DNA from: Dipteris shenzhenensis
Lineage: Eukaryota
DNA: 64,000 nucleotides
Reading direction: 5' to 3' (one strand)
NCBI GenBank assembly: GCA_047967505.1
Contig: CM106538.1
Below the pieces are notes generated by a model, which searched no databases, was not told the origin of the DNA, and was given only the letters and a program-made list of their open reading frames with translations. The translations under genes were made by a program, and so were the position numbers. Positions 16,111-56,468 of the stretch are shown piece after piece. Positions within the stretch are counted from its first letter, which is position 1; each line of letters begins with the position of its first letter.

Positions 16111-16212
16111 TTGTTCCTCCAGAGCTTGACCATGGCTATGCATTCTACCCGTGACGTGTGGATCTGTAAATATCCTAGTGCCTGAATGGAGTCATCCTTG
16201 GTCAAGTGAAGG

Positions 16213-30775: not shown

Positions 30776-31270
30776 TTCCCTCCCTCCTTCTCTCTCCTCC
30801 CTCCCTTCCTTCCCCTCCTCCCTCCCCCTCCCTCACTCCCCCTCCTCACTCCCTCCTCCCCCTCCCTCCTCCTTCCCCTCCCTCCCTCCCTCCTGCCCCT
30901 CCCCCCCCTTCCTCCCCCTCCCCCTCTTCACTGCCTCCTCCCCCTTCCTCCTCCTCCCCCTCCCTCCCTCCCTCCTCCACGCTTGCTCCTCCTACCCTCC
31001 CCCTCCCTCCCTCCTCCACGCCTGCTCCTCCTTCCCTCCCCCTCCCTCCTCCTCCATCATTGCTCCTCCTCCCCCCTCCCTTTGGCTCCTCCCTCCTCCC
31101 TCCCTCCTCCACCACGCCTACTCCTCCTCACCCTCCACACCTGCTGGTTTGCCCCCCTTCTCTCCTCTTCAACTACTGGTCCTCCCCCATCCCTCCTCCG
31201 CCTTGCCCTCCCTCTTCCTGCGTGTTGCTTCTTCAAGCCTACATCTCCACACCTTCTCCTTCTCTACACT
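30776..31270. repeat. Polypyrimidine (C/T) low-complexity tract upstream of the transposase
   Basis: Almost pure C/T. Its reverse complement is present at ~55755-56260. Confidence 0.9.
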
Positions 31271-31279
31271 CCTTTAGTC

Positions 31280-33936
31280 ATGGCACTATTCGAGGACATC
31301 TCCAACAAGTACCAGGTTCACTTAGAGTTGGAGGATGAATATGCAAGCACACGTAGTCTGGGATTGAGGGGAGCTTCTAAAATCCACAGTCTTTGTTCGC
31401 AAGGAAAGAAGCATCTCGACCTTTGGGTAGAATTATCCTTGTATCCTTTAGATCCTGCTAACCAAAAGAGCCCTCCTTTCCATACAATGCATGAGCTAGT
31501 TCAGTTTGTTGGAAATGGACATGCGGGGTTGCTTGGTTATTGCAATCGGTTAAACAATGCTCAGTCAATGGCTATGCAAGCAAGTGAGATGCATAGAGCC
31601 TAGGTAGAGATGCTAGCACATTTTGGAAATAGCACCACTGTTGCAATGCATAACTCTATGCAGGATCTTCAAAGGAAGAACTAGGATCTTAATGATAAAG
31701 CCAAAGCATTGGACTTGGAGTGAAATGCATTGGACTTGGAGCGACATAAATTAGAAGAGTCACTCTGTAAGCTAGTTGAGTCCAAAAAAGGCTTGGAAAG
31801 ATCTATATACAATTAAGTTTGATGAGCTGTAGACAAGGAACGAGAGAAGGCAGAAGAACGAGTGCAAAAGATGAAAGAAACACCTTTGGGATTGAAGGAG
31901 AGGAAAAGAAGGTACTTACATAACATGGATGCATTGGCACCCACTAGTGGTGATAGAAAGAGGAGAGTCTGGGCTACAAGGTTGGTTATCAAATGTTCCA
32001 ATGAAATTACACTCTTTTGTGCTGCATTGTTTGTGACTAAGTTTTTCTTGTGTTCTTCTTTAGGAACTCATGGAAGATGTGATGGGAAGAACAGATGGGG
32101 ATGATATTGACTGTTCATATGCTCTAGCTAGTTTATTGAAGTCAAGCGATGTCATTGGGATACTAAGGGACCCAAGACACAAGTGCCTACATGTGCAAGT
32201 TGCTGAAGAGGTGATGAAGGACCTCAAGGATATTTTGGATGCAAAGGAGAGGCTTGCAGCTTGTGATACTGCCGGTGTAAGTCGTGAAGCTTACACATCT
32301 GTTTTCAAAATTTTCAAGTCTGCTATTTTGGGAAAGTATAAGAAGTCTATAGCGCCCCTACCCACACCTTGGTCTGTGAGACATGCATGGCGAGAAACAA
32401 ACCAATGTGCAAGGGAAATGCTTGGAGGGTACCATTTTGTAAGGGGTACAATGACTTGGAAGAGTAAAAATAAATCTGGCTTGCACATTATAGCATTGCA
32501 CTTTACTTAGTTCATTTCCTATATCATGTTTATCCTAACGATTTCTCTCTTTTGTTGTACAGATTGCAGTGGAAAGTCATATTTGTCATCAAAATGGATG
32601 AAGCTCAATTGGTGAAAGAACACAAGTTAGAGAGAGTGAGCATTTGCATTATGAGAATAAAGCCTTAGCCTTTGTTCAAGGGAGCGAAGAAGTAGAGCAA
32701 GATTTCTCAGTGCAATCAGAGAAAGATATATGATGGCTTGCAGCATTTGAGACTCCGAAAGAGTGCCATGAGACATTGAAGTGGGTTCTAGATAGAACAG
32801 GAATCCCATCGGCGATCCGAAGACAAGAGGAAGGGAAAACATTGACAATCGATGGCCATGGAACATTTCGAGTTGAATGGCATCTTGCTGGTGATTTGGA
32901 AACCCTCAGGTGCTTGCATGGTTGTGATATAGGGAAAATGCCATGAACACATGCCTTTATTACATGTGTTCGCAACGTAAGCAAAAGGTTGGCTTACAAT
33001 GGGAGAATGGCATTCTATCTTGTAGCCAAATGCAAGCTCCCAATCGCAACAAGAAGGATCCAAAGTGGGATCCCATCTTGCCCATCCCACTTGCGAGAGT
33101 ACACATATGTACTTTACATGCAGAACTGCGCATACTTGATAAGTTGTTGTATTTGCATCTTGTTTATGCTTGGAATCTAATTCTGCCTATTGAACCACAA
33201 TTTCGACAAAGACAAACATATATTGTCTCAAAGCAGTTTGGGTTGGGAATACTGGAAAGCATTGTGTGAATGCATGACCAATAAGGCTTCTCATCCTCAA
33301 GTAGCTCAACTTTGAGAGCTAAAGTATGGACAAAGGTAGATGCGTTGATAAAATTTCTTCACCAGGTTCAAATCGATGAGATGTATTATGAAAGGTTCAG
33401 GATGGTTGTGAAAGAGTTTATGCAATTAATGTGTGAAAGCATGGGGGGAGTCGCACATTACGCATTACATGGTAATCTTGGCACCATCGTAATATTTAGC
33501 ACTTGCTTTATATAAACAGTTTTTGTTGCTGAAATGATTCTCATCATGTTTGCAGCATACTCTCTATGCACACGGACCATGGTTTGTACAAAATTGGGAC
33601 CCTTTGTCCATTTGGAATACACAAGGCATGGAGAAGTCGCACTATAGAGCCAAGGTAGCCTACTTTAAGAACTCAAGTCATGGTGGTGGTGTCACTCGCA
33701 GCAATGCATTGCATGAGATGTTTGACTGGTTTTTTAGATGTTTACTAGGAAGGACTTTGAAGTCTGAAAAGGCAAAGGCATCAGAACTTGCAAAAGTAGT
33801 TCGAATTGTATCAAAGAATAGAAGGCATAGTGCTTGGAAAGCATTCGTAGGGAGTCGAGGAGTCGCACGTTGGTTGCAAGCTAGAGTGAGAGAAGGGAGC
33901 AGATGGGTCCAACCACCAACAGAAGCTATTATGTAA
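31280..33936 (+). pseudogene. Four-exon DDE transposase with RAG1/Transib/Chapaev-like core (disrupted)
   Basis: Exons 31280-31980, 32064-~32484, 32563-33471, 33556-33936 with GT-AG introns (one donor deleted). Motifs IKMDE, WHLAGDL, CTLHAELR, ITHYM|HTLYAH, PLSIWNTQGMEKSH. Contains stops and deletions. Confidence 0.82.
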
Positions 33937-33951
33937 TTGTATACAAATATG

Positions 33952-34206
33952 CAGAAGACCACTAACAACCTGATCCTACGTGCTCCCTTCCAACGTGTGG
34001 TACGGGAGATAGCATAGGGATACAAGGACAATGTGCGATTCAACACAGGAGCTATGGGGGCGCTCCAGGAGATGGCGAAGCAAGTGACCATCACTCTGTT
34101 CGAGGATGCCAACTTGTGTGCTATCCATGCAAAACACATCATGGTCATGGACAAGGACATGGCTCTAGCAAAGCGGCTATGGAGTGACCCAAGCTTGAAG
34201 CCCTAG
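33952..34206 (+). pseudogene. Histone H3-like histone-fold domain (N-terminus deleted, one in-frame stop)
   Basis: [83 protein letters not shown] aligns without gaps to canonical H3 [22 protein letters not shown]...[28 protein letters not shown]. Confidence 0.93.
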
Positions 34207-34391
34207 ATTCTCTTGCAGCCCACTCTTAGGACTTAGACCACCCCCTACCCTTGAAGGCAGTATCTTGTATCTAAGGCCCAAGGGCCGATCTTTTTTAATA
34301 AAATATATCCACATTCTGTACACTATCACATTGTTGTGTATCCTCCATTTCTATGACTGAAGTAATTCATCATTTTAATGTAAGTTTTGAA

Positions 34392-34574
34392 TTCTATCAA
34401 ATCCTGAAGGAATTTCACCGTCGCGTAGAAGGGAAAAGTGTTCAGGACATCACCAGGACCTCAGAATGCCCAAATTTGCACCGTGGTGGGTTTCGGGCTT
34501 TCTAGGGTCTTGGCAACATCCTGGACACTTTTTCCTTCTGCACGACAGTGAAATTCCTTCAGGATTTGATAGAA
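34392..34574. repeat. ~183-bp imperfect palindrome/hairpin between convergent genes
   Basis: Arms TTCTATCAAATCCTGAAGGAATTTCAC...GTGAAATTCCTTCAGGATTTGATAGAA. Confidence 0.92.
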
Positions 34575-34785
34575 ATGAACTTTCGATACCCAGAATTGGT
34601 GAAAATGATATTAAATTGGCTAGAAATGTATTAAATTAACACAATTAAATGATGGAGAAAATATATCTTCAATGACTTAAACAATATACAATGGAATTCA
34701 TGACGAGCAACGATAACTTAAAATAAATATTAAAGACATGTAGTCATGCATCTAATAAAATTTATGTTTATATATACAAAAGGCT

Positions 34786-36086
34786 TCACAAGCTATCTTT
34801 CTTCTTGGCTAGTTTGAGTACATCAAGAATAGGGGTCTTTGAATCCCCTAGTGGATTCCTAGATATAAATCTAGCCACAATAGCACTAACATCCTCCTCT
34901 CCTACTGCCAAAGACATAGCTGTTGGCGTCAATGCCTTGCCATGAATGTTCAATCCAAAGGCATTGATAACAGCCAGCCGGTGTACCAAAATGACTTTGT
35001 CAGCATTCCGAGTAATGTTGGAGTATCTGATAGCGCGTGACAATGCCTTGCACTTTAGCGGCTCCGCTCGAGGAGAAAATTTGCTGTGAAAGACCACGAT
35101 ATGCTCTGTGACTTTGCCAAGGTAATGGGCCAAAGAATGATCTTGCCCAAATGCGCTGCAAACATTACCCGGTCGAGATGAGAATTCATCAAGCTCAAAC
35201 GCATCCTGCAACAATTCAACAAACATTAGAAGACCAACAAAACAATTTATACTAAAAGAACATCAAAATAAAAAATATTGTTCGAACTCTCCACTACAGC
35301 ATCGTCGGCTTCTATCCCTTCCTCATTTGTAATGTTGATGGAACCAGGTGCTGTGTGATGTTCCATTTGGGAGGTGGATGCTTTCTCCTAAACTGTGTTG
35401 GAGGTGGAAGCTTCTGCATGAGAGGGTTGTGCATCGTATATAGACATGTCTACATCCCTCATTGAAACCAACATCATCAAGAGAAAGTCTTCCATTGTCT
35501 GGTCTTCAGAACCTAAAACCCCAGGATCTTTGACACGTGTTAACATCGAACCCCGATAGGATTCCGAGTGCCTCATTCTATCGTAATCCAAAAAGAACCT
35601 CTATGTCATGGAGGAATAGTACTCTTCTCCATCGATGATGAGGGGGGACAAGGACCATAATTCTGATTTTGGGTCAGTGGTCTCCGATGCAGATTCTTGC
35701 TCTACTAGAGGCTCTCAAAGTAGGCTCAATGCTTGAGCTACTTCCATCTCCTCTATTGCATCATCAAGACTCTCTTTCATGTACATGTCTGAGACTAGTC
35801 TAGGGACGACTAGATCAACTATTCTACTAGAGGGGGTGCTAGATGACGAGGCTTCTTCCTCTAAATTTCCTTCTTGGAGAAGGAAGATGAATGTCATCTC
35901 CCATGAAAGAAATTTGGTGCTGGTATTTCTTATGATGCCCAATGTCTCCTTCCCCTTCTCTTGAGACGTGCTCTCCACGACCACGTCATCGTCTACTATG
36001 TCCTCAAGTAAAGGAGTTTGCCCTATATCAGTGTCAACTAAAATAGGCACAGGTAGGCAGCGTTTGCCCTTCTGACTTCCATTCAA
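34786..36086 (-). pseudogene. Transposon-borne ORF3 of unknown function (acidic N-terminal part, conserved C-terminal domain)
   Basis: Open last exon 34786-~35226 and a stop-interrupted acidic frame 35290-36086. Homologs at 49910-50510 (-) and 52250-52395 (+). Confidence 0.7.
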
Positions 36087-39371: not shown

Positions 39372-39405
39372 CGTTAGGGGAGAAATGGGGTCTCAAAATG
39401 GCCTC
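39372..39405 (+). repeat. Second terminal repeat of the RAG-like transposon (probably the right TIR, displaced by inversion)
   Basis: CGTTAGGGGAGAAATGGGGTCTCAAAATGGCCTC matches 30569-30602 at 31/34 positions, then diverges, unlike the three left ends, which stay similar further in. Confidence 0.7.
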
Positions 39406-39820
39406 CAATTAGTATTTCCTAATTTCAAGGGATTAGAGAGTGATTTGAGGTGTACTAATGAGAGTGCTAGAAGGTGTCGAGCAATGGTATGTTGAGATGG
39501 AGGGTGGGTGAGCCTTCAGAGAGCCCCCATTGGTTTCTCCTCTTGCACTAGGGACCACCCAAACCATCCCCCCCCTCTTAACCCATGTTTGACCCTCCTA
39601 CCAGGTGCACCTCCCCTACATGAGCCCAAAATTGCCTTCAATGGGATGGTAGGGCCCTTCTGGCAAATTTTCCTTCTCCCCTCCCTCTTTCTAGGGCCTC
39701 TGGCCCCCACTGTTCTAGTCCAGCTTGCCAAACCACTCCATCCAAACCGAATCCCATGCATTTTTCCTCTTCCTCCTCTTTCTCTGCTTCCTCCTGCTCT
39801 AGCCTACTTGCTGCAACTCC

Positions 39821-39823
39821 CCT

Positions 39824-39885
<62 letters not shown>

Positions 39886-40085
39886 GTGCCTCTGTTGGAG
39901 CTGCTCTATCCCTCTCCTTCTCCCTCTCCTGTGCCTCTGTTGCTGCTACTCTGTCCCTCTCCTTCTCCCTCTTTTGTTCCTCTATTGGAGCTGCTCTGTC
40001 CCTCTCCTTCTCCCTCTCCTGTGCCTCTATTGCTGCTGCTCTATCCCTCTCCTTCTCCCTCTTTTGCGCCTCTGTTGGAGCTGCA
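39821..40085. repeat. (CT)n microsatellite followed by a 45-bp minisatellite (~4.5 units)
   Basis: Units begin at 39881, 39926, 39971, 40016 and 40061. Confidence 0.9.
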
Positions 40086-40130
40086 TTGCCCTATGTAGGA
40101 GTCCCATTCTTGCTTGTGGCAACGATTACA

Positions 40131-41936
40131 TTTAAGCTTGTGGCGTGAAGCAATGTTAGAAAACCAACATAGATACCAAACATTTTATCGCATGGGATAT
40201 GATAGTTTTCATTTGTTGAAGTCTCAAATAGAGCCCTATTTACCATCGGTTGATACCGAATGCTTTGTTAGAAGTCCAATCTCTAGTGATCTAGCACTTG
40301 CATGTGTCTTATGGCGCTTTGCCCATGGACACTCTGCAAGGGTGATTGTTGAAATATTTGCCTTAGAATGCAGCACAATAAGAAAATATACGGAATCCAT
40401 AGTGAACATTCTATGTTCCAAACGAATGTTGGTGAAGCATGGCATTACCATTCCATCAGGTATTCACCTATGTAGAATTATATATGAGTTTGAAGCTATA
40501 ACATCTTTGCCCAACATGTGTGGTGCAATAGAGGGATCACACATTCGTTTACATTGGCTTCCTGATGAATATGATACACCCTCACACTACATGAATAGGC
40601 ATGGTTTTTCGAGTATATTGCTACACGGCATAGTTGACTCACGAAAAACCTTCTGGAGTCTTGTCTGCAATGCTCCTGGTGGTGTACATGATTCAACACA
40701 TTTCAAAGGGTCAACTGTGTATGATAAGTTGGTTAGAAAAGAGGTGTTGAAAGAGCCAATGCTCCAAATACAAGGTGAAATTATTCAACCTTACACTGTA
40801 GCAAGTTTCTGCCTATAAGGCAGAAGCATTTGTGCTAAAGGCTTTTAGGGCGAGAGGTGGGTTATACCATGAGGAGAAGGTATTGTTTAGCAAGGGTAGA
40901 GTTGTTATAGAGAATGCATTCGGCATGTTGAAAAATAGGTGGCGTATTCTTAGGGAGGTTAATGCCCACATATGCTTAGCACCTTACATCGCAGTAGCGT
41001 GTTGTGTGTTACATAACTTTGTAACCAAGCGTGGGGAGGTTGATCTAACAGATTGTGTAGACCCATATCCAAACGATAGGGAGGGTGCACGGGAGGTACA
41101 TGGAATGCGTATCGTTGCAGGAACTTGAATGCGAGGAGCTCTATTCAGAGATCTCATGTCTAGGGCTTCAGGGGTGGTAGTAGGCATCGATGTTGCGGTC
41201 GATAGTGAGGGGGAAGAAGAAGAGGATGTGGGTGATGATGTTATGACTGATGATGACTAAAGTTTATCGACTTGAAAATGTATGTATCATCGTCATATAG
41301 GTTCGAGTTGCGATGACGTCTTCGACTAATTGAGGTTAGTATTTGTCTGCTTTACATGTCGATTGCTTGTGTTGTTTGCTTGAGCATACATTGTTTGCAT
41401 TGACTTGAGGTATGTTTTCTTTTATAAAAAAAAGAAATTTGCATGGTCATGTGTGTGGTCCTTTGTTGTGTGTGTGGCCTACCTAAGCAGAGTGTTTGCA
41501 TGTTTGCATGTGGTTTGCATATCTGCTTGTTTGCTTGTTTGTAGCTTAGGTAGGCAAGGCCTCATGGTCGGGGTTCAATTCCCCTAAGGTCATAAGATTT
41601 GTTGTATAAGTGGGGCTATTCAAATTGTAAGTGTGTGTGTAGTATATACTATAAGGTTTTGTTTTCTTTCATGTAAATTATGGTTTTGTAAGATTTTGTA
41701 GATTATGGTCATACCCTATTGGATTTCTTAAGGGACATGTGCCCGTGAAACCGTTAGGATTTCCGGTGGGATCCTACACACATGTGCTTACCTGCCAGCA
41801 TACTATTGGATCATGTGCCCGAAAATCCGATAAGGTCCGGCAAACTTCCAGCAAACATGTGCCCTCAACTCCGATAGCATCAGATAGGCAACAGGTCTAA
41901 CGGAATGCAATCTCCGGCTTACATGTGCCCAACCTA
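40131..41936 (+). mobile_element. PIF/Harbinger-type DDE nuclease (disrupted) with right end and subterminal repeats
   Basis: FYRMGYDSF, CGAIEGSHI (first catalytic D to E), YMNRHGFSSI, PGGVHDS, RVVIENAFGMLKNRWRIL, ACCVLHNF. CATGTGC(C) repeats at 41735-41930. Confidence 0.88.
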
Positions 41937-42830
41937 TCTGCTACTGACGTTTCTGCTACATCTGATCTGTTTAATTTACCGGGCTTTCCGTCCCTTCATG
42001 CCTCGGAGCTTCCCGAGATGGCATGGGACCCAAATCCACTGTGCTCGTTCGAGTTTATGATCCGACTTGGATCGTCTCTCAGTGATGCAACAGGGGCGCT
42101 GATAAACACGATCTATGAGCTGGAGCAGGAAACCATCGAAAGTCTGAGACGCGGTGCAAAGGCGCTGGATATCAGAGCTATCGGGCCACTTCTGCCATTC
42201 GACACCAAAACCGAGTCCGACAACGAGAAAGTGAGCGAATCCGACCAAGAGTGCTTAAAGTGGCTGGACAAGCAACCGGACTCGTGAGTTCTGTACGTAG
42301 CATTCGGAACCGTTGCAAGCATGGGTGCGGAGCAAATGCGGGAGCTGGCGATGGAGCTAGAGGCGAGCCAGCATCGCTTCATGTGGGTGGTGAGGATACC
42401 GACGACGGATGATTTGGAGGGGGATGTGAAGAGGGTGGTACCGGAAGGATTTGAGGAGAGGACGGAGGGGAGGGGGGTGGTGGTGAGGGGGGGGGCGCCG
42501 CAGAGGAGGGTGCTGGTGCACAGGGCGACGGGGGGGTTCATGACGCATTGCGGGTGGATTTCGACGCTAGAGAGTGTGTGCGCGGGGTTGCCGAGACTGT
42601 GTTGGCGGATGTTGGGGGATCAGGGATTGAACAGCAAGCTGTTGGTGGAGGTGATGAGGGTGGGGAAGGCGATGATCGCTCTTGTGAGGAGTGAGGAGAT
42701 GGCCGGATCACCCCCACGGTACCCTCCTTCGGAACAACGCCCTCCACCTTCGAGACGTTGTCACACGAGGCTCCTCCCACTTCCAAAGCTTCCTCAATGA
42801 CATGCTCCTCCCCTCACTCCTAGTATTGTT
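41937..42830 (+). pseudogene. UDP-glycosyltransferase (GT1) C-terminal half with PSPG box
   Basis: NTIYELE, IGPLLP, CLKWLDKQPDS*VLYVAFGT, APQRRVLVHRATGGFMTHCGWISTLESVCAGLP...GDQ. Stop at 42285 and 3' deletions. Confidence 0.93.
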
Positions 42831-45021
42831 CAAGATCTTTGTTACTACATTGTTTTGCTCCTTCAAGCTCTTTGTAACTACTATAAGCATTCCTTTGTAC
42901 TTCCATGGTGTAATGGATGTTCATTTCCCCTTTCAAAGTGAAATCTTGTAATGGAGAAAATTGTTATTTCCGATTGTCAAGAATAATAATAAATGATGTT
43001 CACATGCTCGAGTACATAATATAAGGTTTGATGCCAATGCTCTATCAATGCTCCTATGAGTCTCTATAATCTTGAGGTCCTTCATCCAAACACCAACATC
43101 ACACACCTTTAGATCCTTGTTATCTGAGGTAGTGGAAATCTATCCCTAGATTTGGTATACTATGTTAAGCCTAGACTCAGTGGAAAAGGCATCCTCATCT
43201 TTGTCATCTCCCTCTTCTTATGACGTCGTCTAATAATCAGGCTCCCTCTATCAATTCATCACCTATTCTAGCTTCCTTGATAACTTGCCCCTTGATAATG
43301 TGACATGTCTTTGATCTAAGGACACTCATCTTTGGTTGTCTTAAATTTTAAAGGAGGGTTCTTATTTATGAGAACATAGCCTCTAGATTTTACTTGAAGC
43401 TTCAAGTTTTAGGAAGTGGCTTTTAGATTCAGGGCTACATAGAGAATAGTTGGATCTAGGCTTGATACTCAATCATCACTTAGTATTGAATTTGAGAAGA
43501 TGTGCTCAGATTTGAACCTCGATCATTGTCCGATTTGAGCTCTTTATACCAATTCCCAGTAAATGGCGAATCTATGAAATGTCATCTTACAAGGTTTTGC
43601 ATATTGTTCATAGTCTTGGGTACTAGATCAATAACCACCCCCTCAACTTTAGCAACTTCAAAATAAGACTGAGTTATGATAATTACCTTGGACACATGGT
43701 GAAGCACTACCAATTTCAAGTTATGAATTCGTCCACCTAGTGGGCAAAGCCAATTCTTGATAAGAGACATAAGACATAAAGGAGACATAAAGGCCGAGTA
43801 AGTGATCTTTTTGAACTAGAAATAGCCAAATGTATACCAGAGTAAGACATAGAGTGTAAACCACACCTATAGCACACTCTATGGATGCCTCCACAGTTGC
43901 AGAGTCCTTCTTTCTTATTGATAAATATATATATATCTACTTTTTCAAGCTTCGCATGAAAAGCTTGATGACGTGGGGACCTTGAGGGTTGGACCTTGAG
44001 TGTAATGCTGCTCTAACTTTGTCGCACCTTGTTCACCCTATATGCACAATCATCATTGGACCTTGCTCTAGTGGGTGTTGCCATTGGGATGTGCCCTCTA
44101 ATCCTTGAGCAGTGTAGGTTTTCTAACTTTGTAGTAGGATGTCACATTCAATGTGAATCCCATAGTGTGTGCTCCTAAGTTAGCAGTTAAGAAACTTGGG
44201 TCTGAAGTGGTCAAAATAGTTTGGGCTTCCAACTTTGCAGCAGGATGTTACATTCAATGTGTCATTGGATCCAAGCCTCTGACCATGCACCAAATCTTGA
44301 TTTGAAAAGCGAATGCCAACTCTTGGTCTTGTATGTGACTTTTGAAGTTGGATTGGAAGGATTAACCAATATATTTGGGCTTAGATTGTACCATGGATCT
44401 GCATCTTGAGATGTCCCAGCAGTACCTCTGCATGGCTTCTTGCAACTAGGTTCAAAGGGTCATTTCCCCCTTTATTTTGATGGAGCATTGTGCCCTAGGC
44501 TTCATGTTGGTTGTTCATTCTTTCACTGACTTTTTTGTGGAATTTAATAGGACCTTATAGCCTACTTTAGCCCCTTTTCACTGAGTTTTATTAGGAGGCT
44601 AAATGTTTTTTTATTTGAGCTCCCTTACTTTTCCCTTTCCCCTTTCTTTTTATGTTTCTTGTTTATGATTCTAGATGGCGGTGAGCCTTGGTTTGGCAAG
44701 AGGTGCTCAAATGGTAGCTCCTTCAACTCCCTTAACCATCAAGAGCCTTAATTTCTTTAGACAACAAAGACAAGTGTAGATTGCCATCTAGTCCCTTTAG
44801 GACAAAGCCTTGGTGGGTTGGATAGTTGGGCTTACACCTACTAGGCTTCATTAGGGGAGAATCGGGGTCTCAAAAGGGCCTCGTAAGGAATGGATTAGAG
44901 AATGCTTAACGAGCTAATGCAAGGGGCTTGGAGGGTCCCAAGGAGGCCTAACTAGCCCAACCTAGGTGGGCTAAGCCCACAATTGAGCCCACCTCTCCCC
45001 CCATCAATTAGGGGAGGGGGC

Positions 45022-45580
45022 CACTTTTTAAAGTTGCTTAGACAAGGTCAAATGGATGAGCTTTATTATGAGAGATTCATGAAAACATTGGGAGAATTTA
45101 CATCATTGATGGTAGAAGCATGGGGGGAGTCATATATTACACATTACATGGTAATCCTCCTTAGGTTGAAATTTTGTGCATTAACCTTGGGTCAGTTTAT
45201 GTTTCTAATACGATGTTTTTCTTTATAGCATATCATTTATGCACATGCACCATGGTTTGTGAGCAATGGGGGCCTCTGTCCATTTGGAATACTCAAGGCA
45301 TGGGGAAATTACACTAGAGAGAAAAGGCAACCTACTTCAAGAATACAAGGCATGGGGGTGGTATTGTGTAAAGCAATGCACAAAATGTTCGACTAGTTTT
45401 ATAGATGTCTAGAGGTCAAGACTCTCAAGCGTGACAAAGTAGAGGTCTCAAATCTTGCAAAATAATTAAGGATGTCAAGAAGACAAGGGAATGAGCTACT
45501 TGGAAGTCCTCCATAGGACAATCAAGGGGTTGCACTGTGGTTACAATGTAGAGTCAAACAGGGAAGGTGCTGGGTCCTAA
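45022..45580 (+). pseudogene. C-terminal fragment of the RAG1-like transposase
   Basis: YYERF...AWGESYITHYM|HIIYAHAPWFV...PLSIWNTQGM. Intron 45151-45228 is at the same position as in copies 1 and 3. Confidence 0.85.
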
Positions 45581-45804
45581 GAGAATCCCAAATGTAAAAT
45601 GTTTGATGAATAAAGGTAATACTATTTCAAGTCAATCTCAGATTCCAAAGTTCACAAATTTTTTTGGAAATTGCAGAGTTGCATGTGCATGTATGACATG
45701 GCGAGGTGGAGGGTTGGGTGGGGTGGCTGGGGGTGAAGAGCTAGCATTAGTAAACGGGCGACAAAAAGGGGGGGGAACCTGACAATTCTTAATTTAAACT
45801 GGAC

Positions 45805-45846
45805 TATAAATAAAAACGCTAAAGTGCTTTAAAAAGACTATATAAA
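45805..45846 (+). promoter_or_regulatory. Candidate TATA boxes for the H3-like gene
   Basis: TATAAA at 45805 and TATATAAA at 45839, 39 nt before the ATG of MARVKQTA. Confidence 0.5.
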
Positions 45847-45877
45847 GCATTTCAAAACCCTAAAATGCCACATTTCT

Positions 45878-47120
45878 ATGGCACGAGTTAAACAAACTGC
45901 TAAACCAATTGGATGCTGTTTAGATGCCACCCACTCTTCTCCTCACAAGTCCATTGCTTGCAAACATACTTTGAGCCCCAGTGGCCAAGAAGGTGATGAA
46001 GGCTATTCTCATCGACAAAAGTCCCGGCAATGCGAGTCCCCACCATTTGACTCTCATAGGGGACTCCAGCACCACCTAGGATCTTAGCACGATTAGGGAT
46101 CCCAGCACGATGAGGGGCCCTCTCAATCCTTCCACACAACCAACCGTGGAAGTAGAGAGGTCTCCCAAGAGGTTTAAAATAGTCCAAAAAATCCTGATCG
46201 ACTGCAAACCACTGTCAGTCCCCTCCCTCCTCCGTGGGGTCTTGGCATGGAGCATTTAGACTAACAAGGGGAGCAACAAGGGAGAAGCCACTAGAATATG
46301 GAGAAGCTAAATGGGGCACAACAGAAGGAAGTATTTGGTGGGCTCACATGTATTATGAACTTTGGCCCCAATCCTCCAACCAAGCAGAACGCACAGAAGA
46401 GCGTCCTCAACCCTCTATGCCTTGAGATTGTCACATGTGAGGAGCCCCTGGTCGAGTTGAGCAAGAGCCTCATCTTGACTCATAGCCTTAGCCAAAGTGA
46501 AGGAAGACAATGACAAAGAAGGCCCCAAGGTGTAAGAGGCCACCTAGACACACCCATCAGACACAAGAAGAGGACTCTAAAGACGAGGTTGCAAGGAAGG
46601 AGAGACGGAAGAAGTTTGAAGTAGACAAGCAGCCATGGAGCCATGTCCAAAGGCTGGTGCAGAACCCTCCAAAGATTAAGAGGTGCAAGAAGTCAGGAGT
46701 GAAGGCACTTCAAGAGATCCCCAAGTTCCAGACCATTGTGGACAATTTCATTCCGTGTGTGCCCTTCCAACGTAATATCAACAATACAAGGATGATGTTG
46801 GTTTCACTTTAGGCACTATGGGAGCAATTCAAGAGGAAATGGAGCAGATGACAGCATTGGAACTTAGGGAGAGAGGAGAGCTTCATCATGGAGGTGAGTG
46901 AGAACACATGAAATATTCAAATGGGTGTTCTATTCATTGTGAAGTCCCTCTTTTATAGAAATGGAGAGAGGGTGTCCTAAATCAATGGCACCTCTTCTAC
47001 ATCAATGGAGGTAGCTCCTAAATCATAGGAACTCCACAATCATAGGCAACACCCCATGTGGGGGCCTTTGCATTACATCATCACCTGTGTCATGGTCTAT
47101 GGCACTAAGTGTGCCTCTTC

Positions 47121-47167
<47 letters not shown>

Positions 47168-49341
47168 CCATATGACTACTAGTGGATGCACACATTCACC
47201 TAGCAAGCCCTTGATCACATATATCCCAACATACCTCCCCTCAAGGGTTTTCCTCTTGCTATGTCAAGGATTCATCTAGTCACATAGTTTCTTATGCCAT
47301 CTCATGGTGGTAAACGATAAATCTATGGCTAGGATCTCATGCTAGCAAAGGTGCCCAAGGGTCAAGGTTTACAAAAATGGGATAGACCCCCCCCCAAATG
47401 GTTATCTCTCTTGCATGTACAAGGACTAATCATAAGCCTTTGTGTGGACCTAATTTCTCATGTTTGCAAGAGGTACCATGGGAGCAAACACACATCACAT
47501 GGAAAATATCATATGGTGACCAGAGGTGATTTACAAAATACAAAACACATAACATTCTTTTTGGAGTACTATTCCAGGCAGAGAACCTCAAAAATTGACC
47601 AAGTGATGATAAATACAATTCAAAAGACAAAGTGCTCAAAAGGCAAAGTCTTTACCTTCTACCAGAAAGTTTGATTCCTCATTTGTTGATGGAGTCTTTC
47701 CTTCGGCAATATTTTCTTTGTTGTTGATGCAGCTCTTCTTCACATGAAATGCTTCATTCTCTTGGGATTCATTCCTCTCCTTTTTAGGTAATACTCCATA
47801 GTATGATTGGGTACTCCACAGAAGGCACATATCTTTTTCTTGGTGTTCACCTTGATATATTCACCATTACAAGGCTTTACTCTCATTCTAGGCTTCTTTT
47901 GGAATGCTTTCCTCTGAGATACATAATCAATGTTAGAGGAACAATATGATGAAGGCATATTGGGAAGGTCTAGTCCCTTATAAAGAAGTCTCCTTCTCCA
48001 CAAGTATAATTGTTTGGAGAGATAGTTAGATACCCCAAACTCTTACATAAAGGAAATACAGTGTCTATCGCTTTAAAAAATAGCATTCGAACATATTCAG
48101 ATCATAAATGCATCATGAGCATTTACCAAAACTGTCAAACTATAGGAGTTAAGTGCTCCAAAGGTAAGACTAAAAAATGCCTCAGATCACTTCCAATGGT
48201 CAAACATCCAAAAGACCAAAGATAACTAAGATAATAATGAAACTTTCTAGAACTTAACCATTTTCAATGGTTCACCTTAGAAGCATATATCACTGTTACC
48301 CCCAAATTGAGTAGTTTGAAATTGGAGAGTGCACTTGAAGTTGAAGAGAAAAGATTTGAGAGGGCTTTCAAAGGCAAATGGAAGCTCTTATTGAGGACTA
48401 CTTCCAACAAAGAGGATTGCCAAAACAGCGTGCAACATTGCTCATGACAGTAGCACCTTCTCTGACTAGTATTTTTCTTATTTCTCCTTATTCTAGCAAG
48501 CATTTTAGCTCAAATTTCATGAGCAGCAAGCTCATAGTGTTGCCCATCCATGGCTAAGAGGAATTGGTGAAATATCACATTAGTAGGTGGAATTGATTGA
48601 AAGTTTGGTGAGCAGAGATCATATCGGCACAGGCTGTAGAGAGCATCTCTCTCTAACTGCTTGGTGTCAAAGGTGCACCCAAAGTAGAGGAAACTTCAGC
48701 TCAGAGTGCTCTGGGAATGGTCGCTTAATGGAGGAGAACGGAGCTAAGCAAAATCTGGAGAGAAAGAGGGCAGAAATGAAGAAGAAGATGGAGGGTGGAG
48801 AAGAAGATGATGAGGTGTCATATTGAAGCTACAATGGGCTAGGGACTCAAGGAGGCTCTGATACCAAATGTTGGAACTTGGGTAGAGAGGAGAGCTTCAT
48901 CATGGATGTAGTGAGAACACATGAGATATTCAAATGGATGTTCTATTCATTGTGAGAGGGAAGTCCCTCTTTTATAGAAACGGAGAGAGGGTGTCCTAAA
49001 TCAATGGCACCTCTCCTACATCAATGGAGGTAGCTCCTAAATCATAGGAACTCCACAATCATAAGCACCACCCCATGTGGGGGCCTTTGCATTACATCAT
49101 CACTTGTGTCATGGTCTATGGCACTAAGTGTGCCTCTTCTACACACACACACACAACCATATGACTCCTAGTGGATGCACACATGCACCTAGCAAGCCCT
49201 TGATCACATATATCCCAACAAACAGTAGGTATTTTTGAAGATGAAAACTTATACGCGATCCACACCAAAGGAGTAACAGTGATGGACAAGGATCTTGCAC
49301 TCGCCAAGCGCATCCGCTCTGATCCCTTCCTTAGGGCATAG
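45878..49341 (+). pseudogene. Histone H3-like gene with long N-terminal tail, split by an LTR element
   Basis: MARVKQTAK at 45878; KKSGVKALQEIPKFQTIVDNFIPCVPFQR at ~46690; QQYKDDVGFTLGTMGAIQEEMEQMT | insertion | [39 protein letters not shown] (49222-49341). Confidence 0.9.
46855..49220 (-). mobile_element. Small non-autonomous LTR retrotransposon (LTRs 46855-47231 and 48869-49220)
   Basis: Very similar LTRs; PBS at 48855-48866; polypurine tract at 47232-47244; TSD GACAG/AACAG; only gag-like remnants (CAFCGVPNH). Confidence 0.9.
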
Positions 49342-49503: not shown

Positions 49504-49682
49504 TGTGGCGTAGAAGGCAAAAGTGCTTAGCATCGTGCGGAAATCCTAGAAATGCAAAAACTTGCCATGGTGCATATGGATCTTGTTTGAGTTGGTCAAA
49601 CAAGCTCCATACACCCCATGGCAAGTTTTTTCATTTTTGGGCTTCCCGTGCGATGCTGAGCACTTTTGCCTTCTACACCACA
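49504..49682. repeat. ~179-bp hairpin between the H3-like gene and ORF3 (copy 2)
   Basis: Arms TGTGGCGTAGAAGGCAAAAGTGCT...CTTGTTTGA-GTTGG-TCAAACAAG...AGCACTTTTGCCTTCTACACCACA. Confidence 0.92.
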
Positions 49683-49909
49683 GTGAGATTCTTACTAGAT
49701 TGCTAAAAAATGACCATTATAGTGCAAAGAGTTATCTAATAGCATGCTTTTGAATAGAATAATGAATGAAAATATTAATACCAACAAAAATTAAAGCTAC
49801 ACAATACAATGACAACATAAAATAAATGTTGTCAAAGAATGTCAAATGGAACACTATAGAAAAAGTATATCTGTATTCCTATAAAATAAAAGTTATGTAC
49901 AATAAGGCT

Positions 49910-50510
49910 TCACAGCCTGTGTTTCTTCTCTCTTGCATCTAAAACATTGAGAATATTGGGCTTTGAATTCCCAAATAGGTGCCTAGGTCTAAACCTAGTC
50001 GATAGAGCACCAAGGCGCTTGTCTTGCTGCCAGGGGCATGGTCGCTGCCATCAATGCCATAGCTTGAAAATTCATTCCAAAAGCATTGAGGGTAGCAATG
50101 CAATTCACCAAAATGACCTTGTCAGCATTCTGATTGATGTTAGCATGACCAATCACCCATGACAAGGCCTTGCACTTCAAGAGGTCCTCTGTGCCTCGTG
50201 GCAAAATCTTTTTGTGAATAACCACAAAGCGCCCTTCTGCTTGGCCGAGGTAATGTGCAAGTGAGTGATCTCGAGCGAAGATACCGTGAACAAGGCATGT
50301 TGAGATAAGAAGAGGTCGACCTCAAATGCCTTCTGCAATAATCCAACATTATATTAAAAGGCCAATAAAGCAAAATTATACCAAGAGAGAATAATTTCAA
50401 AACTCATAGTTTCTTACTAATATGGAGTCGTCAGGATTGATCCCTTCCTCTTTGTCTTTAGAGCCAAATGTAAACTTCATGGCCATGCCCACATCCTTTG
50501 CAATCTTATC
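49910..50510 (-). pseudogene. ORF3 homolog (copy 2)
   Basis: LLQKAFEVD...DHSLAHYLG...LKCKALS...NADKVILV...NAFGMN. Stop codon in the same AAGGCTTCACA context as copy 1. Confidence 0.8.
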
Positions 50511-50511
50511 C

Positions 50512-52245
50512 TTGTATGATTACAATCTTCTTTTAGAGATCTCAATAACGGAAGACAAATGGAAAAATGGTGAGAGGGGGAAAGCACACAAGAGAGAGTG
50601 GACACTCGTTTGGTGGGTGTAGAACACCCTAATCTTCTATGTTATCCATATATATATGTATTTGAGTATTGTACATAGCCGGGGTTAAGGCACAGTGGCC
50701 TTTAACCCCCACAACCTCCCACTTAAAGGACAATGAGAGGCCTATGTGCCTTTAAAGGAGAACAACCAATGGACATGTACTATCCAATGCCCATCAATTG
50801 ATGCACGACAATACTCAAACCATTGACTAGGTAGACTCTTCGTCATCATATCTACAGGGTTATCGTCTGTATGAACATTGAAAAGCTCTATGTGCTTGTC
50901 CTCAAGTACCTCCCTGATGAAATGGTACCTGACCTCAGTGTGTTTGGTCTTTCCATGAAAGACCGAATTTTGTGCTAGCTGAATTTAGCACTCATGGAAT
51001 CACTATGCAATGTTGGTACACCTGTATAAATCCGCAAATCTCCTAGTAGCCAATCAAGCCATATAGCCTCCTTGGAACCCTCTATAGGTGCAACATACTC
51101 AGCCTCTGTGTGTGGTAGACAAAGCAATGCACGTCTATGCATGAGACATCCACGACACTGCACCACCTGCAAAGGTGAACATGTCATAACCAGAAGTGGA
51201 TCTCTTGCTAACCACATGCCTGCATAGTCTGAATCTTGGTACCAAAGTGCATGCATCTCTCCTCTGCTTGTGCGCTCGTGATCCAAGTTGAGAGCTCCAC
51301 CAGTAGCGTTGCCAATCGTCTTCACCAAGATCCGCAATACCAACTTTACGATGCTATCAATATGTGAGAGAACCTTCTTGATGCTTAGTGACAAGAGCTT
51401 TACGGCTTTTGGATGCAGCCTAATATGACGTTGCTGGAGTAGAAGAGCTTGCAAAAATCAGCTTGAAGAAAGCTATCTGTTTGCTCGAGATATGATGGAA
51501 ATAGTGCGGAAATAAGAGGGGTAGAAGAGGACTAGAGGCTTGATAAGTTGTTGAAGGCTTGATAACTTATCAAATAAGCTCTCCTTCTCTTATCAATGAA
51601 AAGAAATTATCCCTTGATAAGCGTTGTTGAACCTGCTCATCTGCTCCACCATAGCTCAAACAAACCGAAGAATGCATTTGGAGGGTTTGAATACTCTATA
51701 GCCACCTTTGGAGACCAATTCGTTGCCGAATTTTTTTGGGCTAAATCTCCTTCTTATCAAGTGGCCATTTGTGACAGGAAGAGTAACTTGTAGCGAATTT
51801 CTTCCAAGGGCCGTCTTTACTCGTTTGAAGAGGCTTGTAGGGAAGCTTTGAAAGAAAGGCTTATGGACTAGATCAAGGGATAGAGGAGAATGGCGAAGCA
51901 AGAGGAGAGAGGCGGCCCGTCACATGTAGCAATTCGTGACAGAGACGAAGGTCTCTGTTTTTTTTTTCAAGAGAAAGAGAACCTTAGTCAAAGAGATAAG
52001 GCCCTCCAAAAATTTGACTCCCAAATACCACTCTCAAAGTACTATTTGAAGCTCCCTTTTCAAAATCTGAGTCGATGGCTCCTGTAGCTCTCTTCCCAAC
52101 AATTTTATTGAGAAGTACCTCTCAATCTCAAGTTCTTGTGGAGCATAGCAAGAGCTCTGATACCACTAAAATGTGAATAGCAATTCTAACACATACAATA
52201 GCACCAACAATTGAATATACACGGAAGCTCATGAAAAGACAAGAG
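50512..52245 (-). mobile_element. Deleted Copia element (LTR ~50512-50712, RNase H remnant, PBS ~52155)
   Basis: YQDSDYAG, TEAEYVA..EGSKEAIWL, VFHGKTKHTEVRYHFIRE, NPVDMMTK; GCTCTGATACCA. Confidence 0.8.
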
Positions 52246-52249
52246 GATT

Positions 52250-55200
52250 GAGCCTACTTTAAGAGCCCCTAGTAGAGCAAGAATCTGCATCGGAGACCGA
52301 TGACCCAGACTCAGAATTATGGTCCTTGTCCCCCCTCATTATTGATGGAGAAGAGTACGTATTCCTCCATGACATAGAGATTCTTTTTGGACTATGAGAG
52401 CATATTGTGGTCAAAATAAGCAATATATTTATTTCATATTTGTATACAATTACACCATAGCTTCTATTGGTGGTTGGACCCATCTGCTCCCTTCTCTCAC
52501 TCTAGCTTGCAATCAATGTGCGACTCCTCGACTCCCTATGGATGCTTTCCAAGCACTATGCCTTCTATTTTTTGATACCATTTGAACTGCTTTTGCAAGT
52601 TTTGATGCCTTTGCTTTTTCAGACTTTAAAGTCCTTCCTAGTAAACATCTAAAAAACCAGTCAAACATCTCATGCAATGCATTGCTGCAAGTGACACCCC
52701 ACCATGCCTTGAGTTCTTGAAGTAGGCTTCCTTGGCTCTATAATGCGACTTCTCCATGCCTTGTGTATTCCAAATGGACAAAGGACCCCAATTTTGTACA
52801 AACCATGGTATGTGTGCATAGAGAATATGCTGCAAACATGATGAGAATCATTTCAGCAGCAAAAACTGTTTATAAAGCAAGTGCTAAATATTACGATGGT
52901 GCCAATATTACCATGTAATGCATAATGTGTGACTCCCCCCATGCTTTCACCATTAATTGCATAAACTCTTTCACAGCCATCCTGAACCTTTCATAATACA
53001 TCTCATCGATTTGAACCTAGTGAAGCATTCAACATTGTCTATGTTCTTTTTGGTATCGTAGCCGTGGTAAACTTGTGAGGGTGGCTTTCTTTGTTCTCAT
53101 AGATTCTCTGAAGTTTGTGATATTGTACAACCTCCATGACTACATCAGTGGGCAAACAAAACAACCTCCTCTATGATTTGGCTCTTTTTGGCATGCATCC
53201 ATTGTTTTGAAATGAGGCTAGAGAATCCACTCTTAGTTGATAACAATTATAAATGCATTGGTGGCTTAGCATAATGATTCAATGAAAGATATCTTGATGA
53301 ATATAGATTGTGAATTGAGTAATTCAAATAAAAAATGGAGTGTTAGAGACAATTAGAAAAAATGATCCGAGATGTAGAGTCTATGTAGCTTTGTGCACCT
53401 AACTTGAGAGAGTACACATATGTACTTTACACACAGAACTGCGCGTACTTAATAAGAAGTTGTATTTGCATCTTGTTTATGCTTGGAATTTAATTCTGTA
53501 AGAAGTATCCGCATGGTGCATTACAGAAGCTGAGAAGTTGCTGTCAGAGATGGGATTCCATGGAGGACATGTCAAACTTAAGGAGGATAAGAAAATGTCT
53601 GGGGCAACAGAGAATCTTCCTACAAAAGTGTCCATGGGTGGAGGGAAGGCAAGGAGATTCCTATCGAACCACAATCTCGACAAAGATAAACATACATTAT
53701 CTCAAAGTAGTTTGGGTTGGGAATACTGGAAAGCATTGTGTGAATGCACGACCAATAAGGCTTCTCATCCTCAAGTAGCAACTTTGAGAGCTAAAGTTGG
53801 ACAAAGGTAGATGCATTGATAAGTGGGATGGGTAAGATGGGATCCCACTTTGGATCCTTCTTATCGAGATTGGGAGCTTGCATTTGACTACAAGATAAAA
53901 TGCCATTCTCCCATTGTAAGTCACCCTTTTGCTTACACTGCGAATACATGCAATAAAGGCATGTGTTCATTGCATTTGCCCCTGTATCACAAGCATGCAA
54001 GCACTTGAGGGTTTTCAAATCACCAACAAGATGCCATTCAACTTGAAAGGTTCCATGGCCATCGACTGTCAATGTTTGCCCTTCCTCTTGTCTTCGGATC
54101 GTCAATGGGATTCCTGTTCTATCTAGAACCCACTTCAATGTCTCATGGCACTCTTTCAGAGTCTCAAATGCTGCAAGCCACCATATATCTTTCTCTGATT
54201 GCACTGAGAAATCTTGCTCTACTTCTTCATTCCCTTGAACAAAGACTAAGGCTTTATTCATAATGCAAATGCTGACTCTCTCTAACTTGTGTTCTTTCAC
54301 CAATTATGCTTCATCCATTTTGATGACAAATATGAGCTTTCCATTACAATCTGTACAACAAAAGAGAGAAACCGTTAGGATAAACATGATATAGGAAATG
54401 AACTAAGTAAAGTGCAATGCTATAATGGATTTCCTCTTACCATCCTCTCTCATGCCATAGAATTTGACCATTGCTTGTTGCAGTTTCTCAACATCTAAGT
54501 AGACAATCTAAGTAGACATTGTTGAAAGCATTCATCTCAAAGGTTTGCAAGCCAGATTTCTTTTTACTCTTCCAAGTCATTGTGCCCCTTACGCAATGGG
54601 ACCCTCCAAGTATTTCTCTTGCACATTGGTTTGTTTATTACCGTGCACATCTCACAGACTAAGGTATGGATAGGGGCACTATAGGCTTCTTATACTTTCC
54701 TAAAATTGCAGACTTGAAAATGTTGAAAATAGATGTGTAAGCTTCACGACTTGCACTAACAATATCACAAGCTGCAAGCATCTCCTTTGCATCCATGATA
54801 TCCTTAAAGTCCATACCTCTTCAGCAACTTGCACACGTAGGCGCTTATGTCTTGGGTCCCTTAGTATCCTCATGACATCGCTTGACTTCAATAAACTAGC
54901 TAGAGCATATGAACAGTCAATATCATCCCCGTCCGTTCTTCCCATTACATCTTCCATGAAGTTCCTAAAGAAGAACACAATAAAAACTTAGTCACAAACA
55001 ATGTAGCATAAAAGAGGTTTATCTCATTAGAACATTTGATAACCAACCTTGTAGCTCGGACTCTTCTCTTTCTAGCACCACCAGTGGGTGCCAATGCATC
55101 CATGTTATGTAAGTACCTTCTTTTCCTCTCCTTCAATTTCAAAGGTGTTTCTTTGATCTTTTGCACTCGTTCTTCTGCCCTCTCTCGTTCCTTCTCTACG

Positions 55201-56468
55201 ACTCGTCGAACTTGATTGTATATAGATCTTTCCAAGCCTTTTTTGGACTCAGCTAGCTTACAGAGTGACTCTTCTAATTTATGTCGCTCCAAGTCCAATG
55301 CATTTTGCTCCAAGTCCAATGCTTTGGCTTTATCATGAAGATCATGGTTCTTCCTTTGAAGATCCTGCATAGAGTTATGCATTGCAACAATGGTACTATT
55401 TCCTAAATGTTCTAGCATCTCTGCTTGGGCTCTACGCATCTCGCTTGCTTGCATAGCCATTGACTGAGCATTGTTTAACCGATTGCAATAACCAAGCAAC
55501 CCCGCATGTCCATTTGCAATGAACCGAACTAGTTCATGCATTGTATGGAAAGGAGGGCTCTTTTGGTTGGCAGGATATAAAGGATACAAGGATCCTTCTA
55601 CCCAAAGGTCGAGATGCTTCTTTCCTCGCGAACGAAGACTTTGGATTTTGGAAGCTTCCCTCAATCCTAGACTACGTGTGCTTGCATATTCAGCCTCCAA
55701 CTCTAAGTGAACCTGGTACTTGGAGACATCCTCGAATGGTGCCATGACTAAAGGAGTGTAGAGAAGGAGAAGGTGTCGAGATGCAAGCTTGAAGGAGCAG
55801 CACGCAAGAAGAGGGAGAGCGAGAAGGAGGAGGAATGAGGAAGGGAGGACCAATAGTTGAAGAGGAGGAAAGGGGGGCGGACCAGCAGATGTGGAGGGTG
55901 AGGAGGAGTAGGTGTGGAGGAGGAGGAAGGGAGGAGGGAGGAGCAGGAGGGAGGGGGGAGAAGGAGCAGGAGGGAGGGGAGAGGAGGAGGGAGGGGGAGG
56001 GGAGGAGGAGTGGGCGTGGAGGAGGGAGGGAGGGAGGGAGAGGGCAGGAGGAGCAAGCATAGAGAAGAGAGGAAGGGAGGGGAAGAAGCAGGAAGGGGGA
56101 GGAGGGAGTGAGGAGAGGGGACGAGGAGGGGAGGAGAGGGGAGGGGGAGGGGGGAGGGAGGAAGGGGGAGGAGGAGGGAGGGGGAGGAGGGAGTGAGGAG
56201 GAGGAGTGAGGGAGGGGAAGGGAGGAGGGGGAGGGAGGAGAGAGAAGGAGGGAGGGAATTCAAAATCCGAATTTTAAATTTTGAATTTTTTGGTTCCCAC
56301 CTAGAAGTAAGAGTTGTGTAAGAGGTGGGATCACTTTTGGGCTTAACCCACCAAAGTGAGAGGGGGTTAGGACTTTTTAGGACCTACTATGGCCCTTTCA
56401 TTAGGACTAATGCATTTCTTAAGCCATTCCTTATGAGGCCCTTTTAAGACCGCAATTCTTCCCTAATG
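52250..56468 (-). mobile_element. Copy 3 of the RAG-like transposon (close to copy 1, inverted; H3 and most of ORF3 deleted)
   Basis: Left end at 56468 (reverse complement CATTAGGGAAGAATTGCGGTCTTAAAAGGGCCTC). Colinear with 30569-33950. ORF3 fragment at 52250-52395. Confidence 0.88.
52450..55745 (-). pseudogene. RAG1/Transib/Chapaev-like transposase, copy 3 (disrupted, internal inversion)
   Basis: Open exon 1 (MAPFEDVSKY...coiled coil...RKRRVRATR); WHLVGDLKTLKCLHACDTGANAMNTCLYC; ITHYM|HILYAH; GPLSIWNTQGMEKSH. Confidence 0.85.

Follow-up and report, generated by a model that had tools for sequence, protein, structure and literature searches.

In the Dothideomycetes Pseudocercospora fijiensis and Pyrenophora tritici-repentis a hAT transposon has captured and amplified housekeeping H3, and the H3 coding sequence there lies inside a DNA transposon, is multiplied with the element and is dead in most copies (PMC6710886). 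The same can be said of a locus at positions 45,805 to 49,341 of a 64,000-nucleotide (nt) stretch of Dipteris shenzhenensis DNA (assembly GCA_047967505.1, contig CM106538.1; the whole stretch is called the window below), which, as its alignments read, is a divergent histone H3 gene turned pseudogene, and which we consider to be probably a decayed H3 variant gene living as a resident passenger of a DNA-transposon-like repeat, here called the carrier. The fungal copies are recent housekeeping copies with a recognisable parent, killed by repeat-induced point mutation (PMC6710886), whereas the gene in the window is deeply diverged, sharing about 50-60% of its residues with any other H3, has a tail almost three times the normal length and a promoter-like region of its own, shows a codon pattern of apparent past purifying selection between carrier subfamilies, and belongs to a plant-like host and a different carrier. 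The window itself is repeat-rich, has 42% G+C, reads as plant-like and is crowded with nested elements.

Pack-MULE type transduplication, by which plant DNA transposons carry gene fragments, usually without long-term constraint, is similar in that a plant DNA transposon contains host-derived coding sequence, but in the window a whole gene with a promoter-like region has persisted across diverged subfamilies. Large DNA viruses of microbial eukaryotes carry histones or histone-tail mimics, so that in both cases a selfish element has its own H3-type protein or H3-tail boxes; unlike the viral case, the element in the window is a transposon of a plant-like chromosome, and its protein has kept the full H3 fold. 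A literature search in the main texts of openly accessible articles found no plant transposon-encoded H3, and the transposon-associated H3 variant family described here is seemingly real and seemingly undescribed.

The histone fold at the locus is distributed over three pieces (Table 1). The C-terminal piece is the clearest, as all 60 matches listed from PDB are H3 chains (E 1.3e-8 to 3.7e-8), its identity is 62.5% both to P0151 (database proteins are given by our numbers) and to carrier copy 1, and the C-termini of the related proteins match it at E 1e-9 to 1e-12; taken alone against Pfam Histone it reaches E 1e-5 and 26.2 bits, just below the cut-off of 26.4. The piece from helix 1 to helix 2 shows 56.5% identity to copy 1 (tblastn, E 1e-5), and the helix-N stretch KKSGVKALQEIPKFQ...PFQR lies at 46687-46773, with weak PDB matches to H3 and cnp1 chains (E 0.038 to 0.9; 6kxv_A at E 0.038). 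The reading frame is not intact: it is shifted once near 46505-46512 and again after 46773, where 11 nt are deleted relative to copy 1 and the VVRE codons of helix 1 are lost with them, and a long terminal repeat (LTR) retroelement lies in helix 2 (46855-49220); because of these three lesions the target copy cannot make a protein.

The LTR insert has TG..CA ends and is flanked by a target duplication (GACAG 46850-46854, AACAG 49221-49225), and when the insert is excised together with one copy of the duplication, ...EQMT|VGIFED... comes back in frame. Its primer-binding site is the complement of 48855-48866, which places the element on the minus strand, and we take this site to resemble the tRNA-Met type consensus; a purine tract is formed by the complement of 47232-47250. 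The insert gave no reverse transcriptase or integrase, and its three minus-strand open reading frames (ORFs; 47740-48695) have no Pfam family. The two LTRs are 92-97% identical by repeat search (93.7% and 97.5% by blastn), and with this divergence of 3-6% between them the target copy must have been dead for some time.

Self-comparison of the window gave three copies of the carrier, all of which start at one common base, with unrelated flanks. A 29-nt terminal motif has four matches in the window against zero expected, and all four left-type termini directly follow TTA. The last part of the carrier ORF in the target copy (copy 3) has 68.6% identity to 33349-33910 and 69.7% to 53014-52476, with ATGTAA at the matching place of both copies in a global alignment, and identities of 0.76, 0.78 and 0.61 at codon positions 1, 2 and 3. 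In copy 3 the terminus is joined to this last carrier exon, and the ORFs that precede it in copies 1 and 2 are missing; on this structure, copy 3 is an internal-deletion derivative of the carrier. Copies 1 and 3 have a common order of carrier ORF stop, H3, inverted repeat and minus-strand ORF, the inverted repeat (87-88-nt arms, 82-85% complementary, about 160-190 nt past the stop) lying in both between the H3-like gene and the convergent ORF. The ORF of the downstream block is 44% identical to its counterpart in copy 1 (tblastn, E 6e-24) and shows codon-like periodicity. The proposal of the earlier note that an H3-type gene belongs to a mobile element is thus borne out by the Pfam Histone match of copy 1 and the PDB H3 matches on the one side, and by the three carrier copies, the sharp left boundary and the 29-nt motif on the other. 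The letters that it quoted (TATA-like boxes, MARVKQTAKPIG, KKAPR, VARK and the start of the H3 fold) are all present on re-reading; it had missed box W2, the splitting of the fold by the LTR element, the 11-nt deletion and the second fold at 33949-34203.

Table 1. Coordinates of the features in and around the H3-like locus and its carrier.
Feature	Position	Strand	Remarks
Promoter-like stretch	45805..45863	+	TATAAA 45805, TATATA 45839, AAACCCTA 45855; regex scan, promoter role predicted
Box W1	45878..46084	+	ORF with ATG at 45878, opens MARVKQTAKPIG (MARVKQTAK), 69 codons to stop; H3-start-like, without ARKS
Spacer	46085..46297	+	Five stops in the W1/W2 frame, between 46085 and 46294; no matching relative
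Box W2 ORF	46298..46513	+	MEKLNGAQQKEVFGGLTCIMNFGPNPPTKQNAQKSVLNP...; TKQNAQKS 46379-46402; family-homologous N-terminal region
Tail and helix N	46501..46773	+	Other frame; holds KKAPR, VARK, RRKKFEVDKQPW, KKSGVKALQEIPKFQTIVDNFIPCVPFQR
End of helix 1, loop 1, start of helix 2	46776..46854	+	Third frame, after the 11-nt deletion relative to copy 1; DNA alignment with 33956-34088
Non-autonomous LTR retroelement	46855..49220	-	2,366 nt; LTRs 46855-47231 and 48869-49220; splits helix 2
Rest of helix 2, helix 3, C-terminus and stop	49226..49341	+	PDB H3 and Pfam Histone matches
Second H3-like fold, carrier copy 1	33949..34203	+	Pfam Histone E 2.2e-20, 73.5 bits (cut-off 26.4)
Carrier copy 1	30569-35733	+	Self-comparison
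Carrier copy 2	56468-52244	-	Self-comparison; 89-94% identical to copy 1; H3 part wholly absent
Carrier copy 3 (target)	starts 44849	+	67-77% identical to the other copies over alignable blocks
Left terminus of copy 3	44849..44996	+	76-77% identical to 30567-30703 and 56468-56321; 29-nt motif 44854-44882 directly after TTA
Last part of carrier ORF	45029..45595	+	Ends in TAA 45593-45595, kept in all three copies
Inverted repeat	49504..49682		87-nt arms, about 160 nt past the H3-like stop; also in copy 1, 34387-34579
Downstream carrier block with minus-strand ORF	49894..50388	-	Collinear with 34771-35259; 66.9% nucleotide identity

As regards the tail, P0153 is the sole relative that covers the N-terminal region, and its N-terminus pairs with box W2 and not with MARVKQTAK. 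By tblastn, residues 2-79 of P0153 are placed on 46331-46606, where its ...GSTVPIKQTARKSVIGP... aligns with ...GPNPPTKQNAQKSVLNP... of the window ORF at 46298-46510, and the Smith-Waterman score of the W2 region against this N-terminus is 63, compared with 24.7 +/- 4.9 for shuffles, none of 1000 of which reached it. The box of P0153 reads PIKQTARKS / KQTARKSV, with ARKS intact, and the one in the window (PPTKQNAQKS at 46373-46402, in the frame of W1) has kept K-S with R replaced by Q. Ahead of the box the frame is open and similar over 16 codons or more in both P0153 and the window, and the box is therefore internal and not N-terminal. Counted from the K4-like lysine up to the helix-N glycine, the tail measures 109 residues in P0153 and about 105 in the window, compared with 38-42 in five ordinary-type H3s, so that the tail of this family is truly extended, by about 65 residues. 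The codons backed by homology are the last 105 or so of the tail and about 16 upstream of the W2 box, and the homology-supported tail is accordingly read as about 105-109 residues and not as about 270.

The rest of the tail is also shared with the database relatives, as the stretch from tail to helix N matches P0151, P0152, P0153 and P0162 at tblastn E 6e-17 to 4e-18. Within it KKAPR (46516-46530) is aligned to a family box RTKTTP(N/S)T, and VARK follows at 46588-46599. In the AlphaFold2 (AF2) model of P0152, which is poor overall (mean predicted local distance difference test, pLDDT, 59), the charged tail residues 40-71 form one helix with pLDDT of about 77-81. The 103-residue tail ORF used as a protein query gave no matches in the near and longer length ranges.

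These results change the picture given in the earlier note, which had described a tail of about 800 nt (on our count some 270 codons), in which the K4 context was kept and the K9/S10 context lost. That the tail is longer than normal holds; the full length is not supported, with five stops and an unmatched spacer in the way. Nor is loss of K9/S10 supported as a trait of the gene, since ARKS is retained in P0153 and the loss is thus not fixed in the family, and K-S is retained in W2 itself. KKAPR, taken there as an echo of the GKAPR of H3, aligns with RTKTTP(N/S)T instead, and can be equated with the K14 region only tentatively.

A possible explanation, although one to which we give clearly less credence, is that a single protein started at MARVKQTAK (45878) and had a tail of about 270 residues with two or three H3-start-like boxes, the first without ARKS; this would be compatible with carriage by the transposon. 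Across the six frames of the window only two H3-start-like boxes were found, W1 and W2, both on the plus strand and in one frame. The chance expectation for a box of MARVKQTAK type is about 3e-6 (our own base-composition arithmetic and not the output of a tool), by which MARVKQTAK is no chance match. TATA-like and AAACCCTA boxes stand upstream of W1 only, as the regex scan found no TATA-type or AAACCCTA-type box ahead of W2 in 45914-46300, and together with the common strand and frame this favours one transcript, perhaps one two-box protein. The open codons before the internal box in P0153 and in the window speak in the same direction, as does P0163, in which the box is repeated in the tail. 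However, the five in-frame stops of 46085-46294 interrupt such a protein, and tblastn with the family proteins gave no match to any relative in 45914-46330, which leaves the coding status of the 384 nt from MARVKQTAKPIG to the second ORF (45914-46297; MARVKQTAK is 420 nt upstream of that ORF) without homology support. W1 is not significantly similar either to W2 (score reached by 37 of 1000 shuffles) or to the N-terminus of P0153 (75 of 1000). By-eye inspection of the locus sequence gave no GT..AG pair that would join the frames with the spacer as an intron, and the spacer is tiled by minus-strand ORFs, which have no Pfam family, just as well as by plus-strand ORFs. Finally, the ORF call of P0153 reaches no further upstream although its contig, to judge from the lengths, has about 570 nt more.

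Two other origins of this arrangement were considered and rejected: an insertion of the miniature inverted-repeat transposable element type as the spacer, as no direct or inverted repeats mark an insertion, and a recent tandem duplication giving W1 and W2, as the DNA alignment of 45700-46200 with 46201-46700 scores 27, where shuffles score 25 +/- 3. A motif scan did not find the plant histone promoter hexamer, octamer or nonamer. A short upstream ORF (MPHFYGTS, 45865-45891), in a different frame, overlaps the start codon of MARVKQTAK.

Returning to the decayed passenger gene that we prefer, its past is best seen from the second H3-like fold, which lies in carrier copy 1 at a place collinear with the target fold, the two carrier copies being diverged. 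This fold has one in-frame TAG (34015-34017) and is without promoter, tail and half of helix N. Over 77 aligned codons the two window folds are identical at 65%, 78% and 39% of codon positions 1, 2 and 3 (chi-square p 3e-6), and position 2 at 78% compared with position 3 at 39% indicates past purifying selection while the two carrier subfamilies diverged. With the NG86 method on 65 codons (of which 4 are out of frame), the nonsynonymous divergence dN was 0.33, and the synonymous divergence dS was not computable. It is on this point that a neutral transduplicate has to be weighed, in which a host gene of H3 or CENH3 type, or a retrocopy, was caught once and has been drifting without function ever since, as the H3 copies in fungal hAT elements did. 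All the copies in the window are broken, many of the database relatives are fragmentary or frameshifted, and a DNA transposon is known to have captured H3 in fungi (PMC6710886), but the codon pattern between post-capture copies is unlike neutral drift, the H3 fold is still recognisable at about 55% identity to ordinary H3, the tail blocks are kept between the window and the database family (E 1e-17), and the nearest non-family H3 among the matches listed is distant enough that no recent parent is in view. We therefore hold neutral drift since a single capture to be unlikely.

The database family was reached through the copy-1 fold, an exhaustive HMMER search with which gave 8,429 matches at E up to 1e-3, with P0027 among the best 150 listed. 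The tail of P0027 matches the tail in the window. A search with P0027 itself, which covered proteins of up to 231 residues, brought up 233 candidates; 199 of them reached E 1e-5 or better, and the best 120 were listed. At least 15 proteins among these 120 form a tight family, all on ENA contigs of 0.5-1.25 kb, with 76-96% identity to P0027, counted over the stretch that aligns, and about 50-60% to the window copies. Three of the 15 span tail to stop, and precomputed PF00125 assignments are found on family proteins. Among the matches listed, the nearest non-family H3 has 61% identity over 75% of P0027, and no recent parent is thus in view. Several family proteins begin with M where their relatives show V, which suggests a prokaryote-style gene caller, and their starts may accordingly be arbitrary. 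Other routes to relatives were fruitless: of 14 long-tailed matches of the copy-1 fold search that were inspected, none is in the family, a metagenome scan with the family alignment gave 87 pattern matches, none related, and a metagenome scan with a degenerate FEDANMCAIHAK pattern gave three loci, all unrelated intron-bearing H3 genes.

In a tree of 42 rows, both window copies are grouped with seven family proteins on one side of a branch with support 93/92, the window rows being on long branches, as pseudogenes would show. Nine CENH3-type rows (angiosperm CENH3 and one animal CENP-A) form a 100/100 clade without the family, and the family is also outside the canonical-type H3s. The likeness to CENH3 and CENP-A consists of a divergent H3 with a long, fast-evolving N-terminal tail, and of a fold in which Trp replaces the Phe of loop 1 and Ala the Thr of FEDT, both of which we take to be CENH3 marks; the plant CENH3 rows and the family both have an IP.A.F motif after helix N. 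In CENH3 and CENP-A, loop 1 is longer than in H3. The family differs in that its loop 1 is of ordinary H3 length (ungapped over 79 residues against the H3-type P0173, with a one-residue gap against the CENH3-like P0255), in that it lies outside the sampled CENH3 clade and is multi-copy in a repeat, and in the KQTARKS box of P0153. That the locus is an ordinary host H3-variant or CENH3 pseudogene merely lying beside transposons is highly improbable, because the wealth of nested elements in the window and the fold positions that resemble centromeric H3 are outweighed by two diverged folds that occupy collinear positions in separate copies of one repeat, by the ordinary loop 1 and by the position outside the CENH3 clade.

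Three further database proteins, P0163, P0165 and P0175, are like the family in having IPRA(A/P)FQR(V/L)VRE and W-Q-S-x-ALGA in the fold as well as extended tails, and unlike it in their 48-56% identity to P0027 and their place outside the family branch. P0163 (JGI source) is a 166-residue H3 variant with a KQTARK-type box three times in its tail; P0165 and P0175 have the IPRAAFQRVVRE motif in common with the family, yet are outside the family in the tree.

Several observations weigh against the reading of the locus as a gene resident in the carrier. A search for the right end of the carrier and for its target duplication in the window found neither, and the carrier ORFs have no Pfam match (E up to 10) or PDB match. 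The selection signal comes from 77 codons of two broken copies, and identity at third positions is lower in the H3 part (39%) than in the carrier exon (61%), which is unexplained. The N-terminus is covered by a single relative, and the AF2 model of P0152 is poor. The database relatives are proteins without DNA, and the link with a transposon is seen only for the window copies. P0156 and P0265 have a frameshift in common, and with ORFs that are mostly partial this means that the database family is largely decayed too.

On the reading that we prefer, the H3 gene of the carrier comes directly after the element's own ORF, has a TATA-type promoter region to itself, and is followed by the conserved long inverted repeat and then by the convergent ORF. 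The intact family protein would consist of H3 helix N and histone fold behind a tail of roughly 110-130 residues, with a TKQTARKS-type box internal in the tail, then an Ala/Ser/Pro-rich stretch, the RTKTTP box and a charged segment that is predicted to be helical. In an active element such a protein may pair with H4 and enter nucleosomes as a variant H3, and its tail may be read differently by histone-modifying enzymes.

H3K9me2 is the plant transposon-silencing mark linked to CMT methylation, and H3K4me marks active chromatin. Against this background a much bolder hypothesis can be put forward, which we regard as speculative and quite improbable: that a plant transposon encodes a nucleosomal H3 variant whose tail of 110 to 270 residues arrays internal H3-start-like boxes (MARVKQTAK, TKQTARKS, RTKTTP), differently presented to the writers and readers of K4 and K9, and that this variant, deposited on the chromatin of the element or titrating enzymes from it, counters H3K9me2/CMT silencing. 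If this were true, a long-tailed H3 kept under selection by a chromosomal plant transposon would be a new way to act on silencing chromatin. The family is a concrete object for such questions, with its complete H3 fold, a K4/K9 box that has come to lie inside the tail, and tail blocks that are conserved. The target copy is dead, and the 270-residue tail and the K9 loss are not supported as family properties.

The carrier may be a PIF/Harbinger or a CACTA/Transib-like DNA transposon. Its ORFs 53791-54303 (minus strand) and 32609-33092 (plus strand) contain a G-D-x-K...C-x-x-C stretch, and in the Atlas feature search the former adjoins clusters of RAG1 RNase-H/ZnC2 (0.96-0.97) and one of fungal Transposase_21 (0.95). 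The long ORF of the carrier has tandem proline-rich coding repeats (30777-31166 and 55859-56257) close to where it begins, followed by a part that looks like coiled coil; the ORF at 54945-56273 (minus strand, 442 residues) has no Pfam family. The fourth copy of the 29-nt motif, with two mismatches, opens a different element (39377-41587) with a possible imperfect right end at about 41560-41587, and this element has a PIF/Harbinger-type ORF (40099-40818) with a DDE_Tnp_4 match at E 0.0049, below the cut-off. Elsewhere in the window, the ORFs 14960-16135 and 50742-51457 (both minus strand) resemble by eye pieces of retrotransposon integrase/RNase H, the ORF 50975-51457 having no Pfam family at E 0.01, and a fragment of a UDP-glycosyltransferase gene lies at 42288-42800 on the plus strand (Pfam UDPGT, E 1.6e-12).

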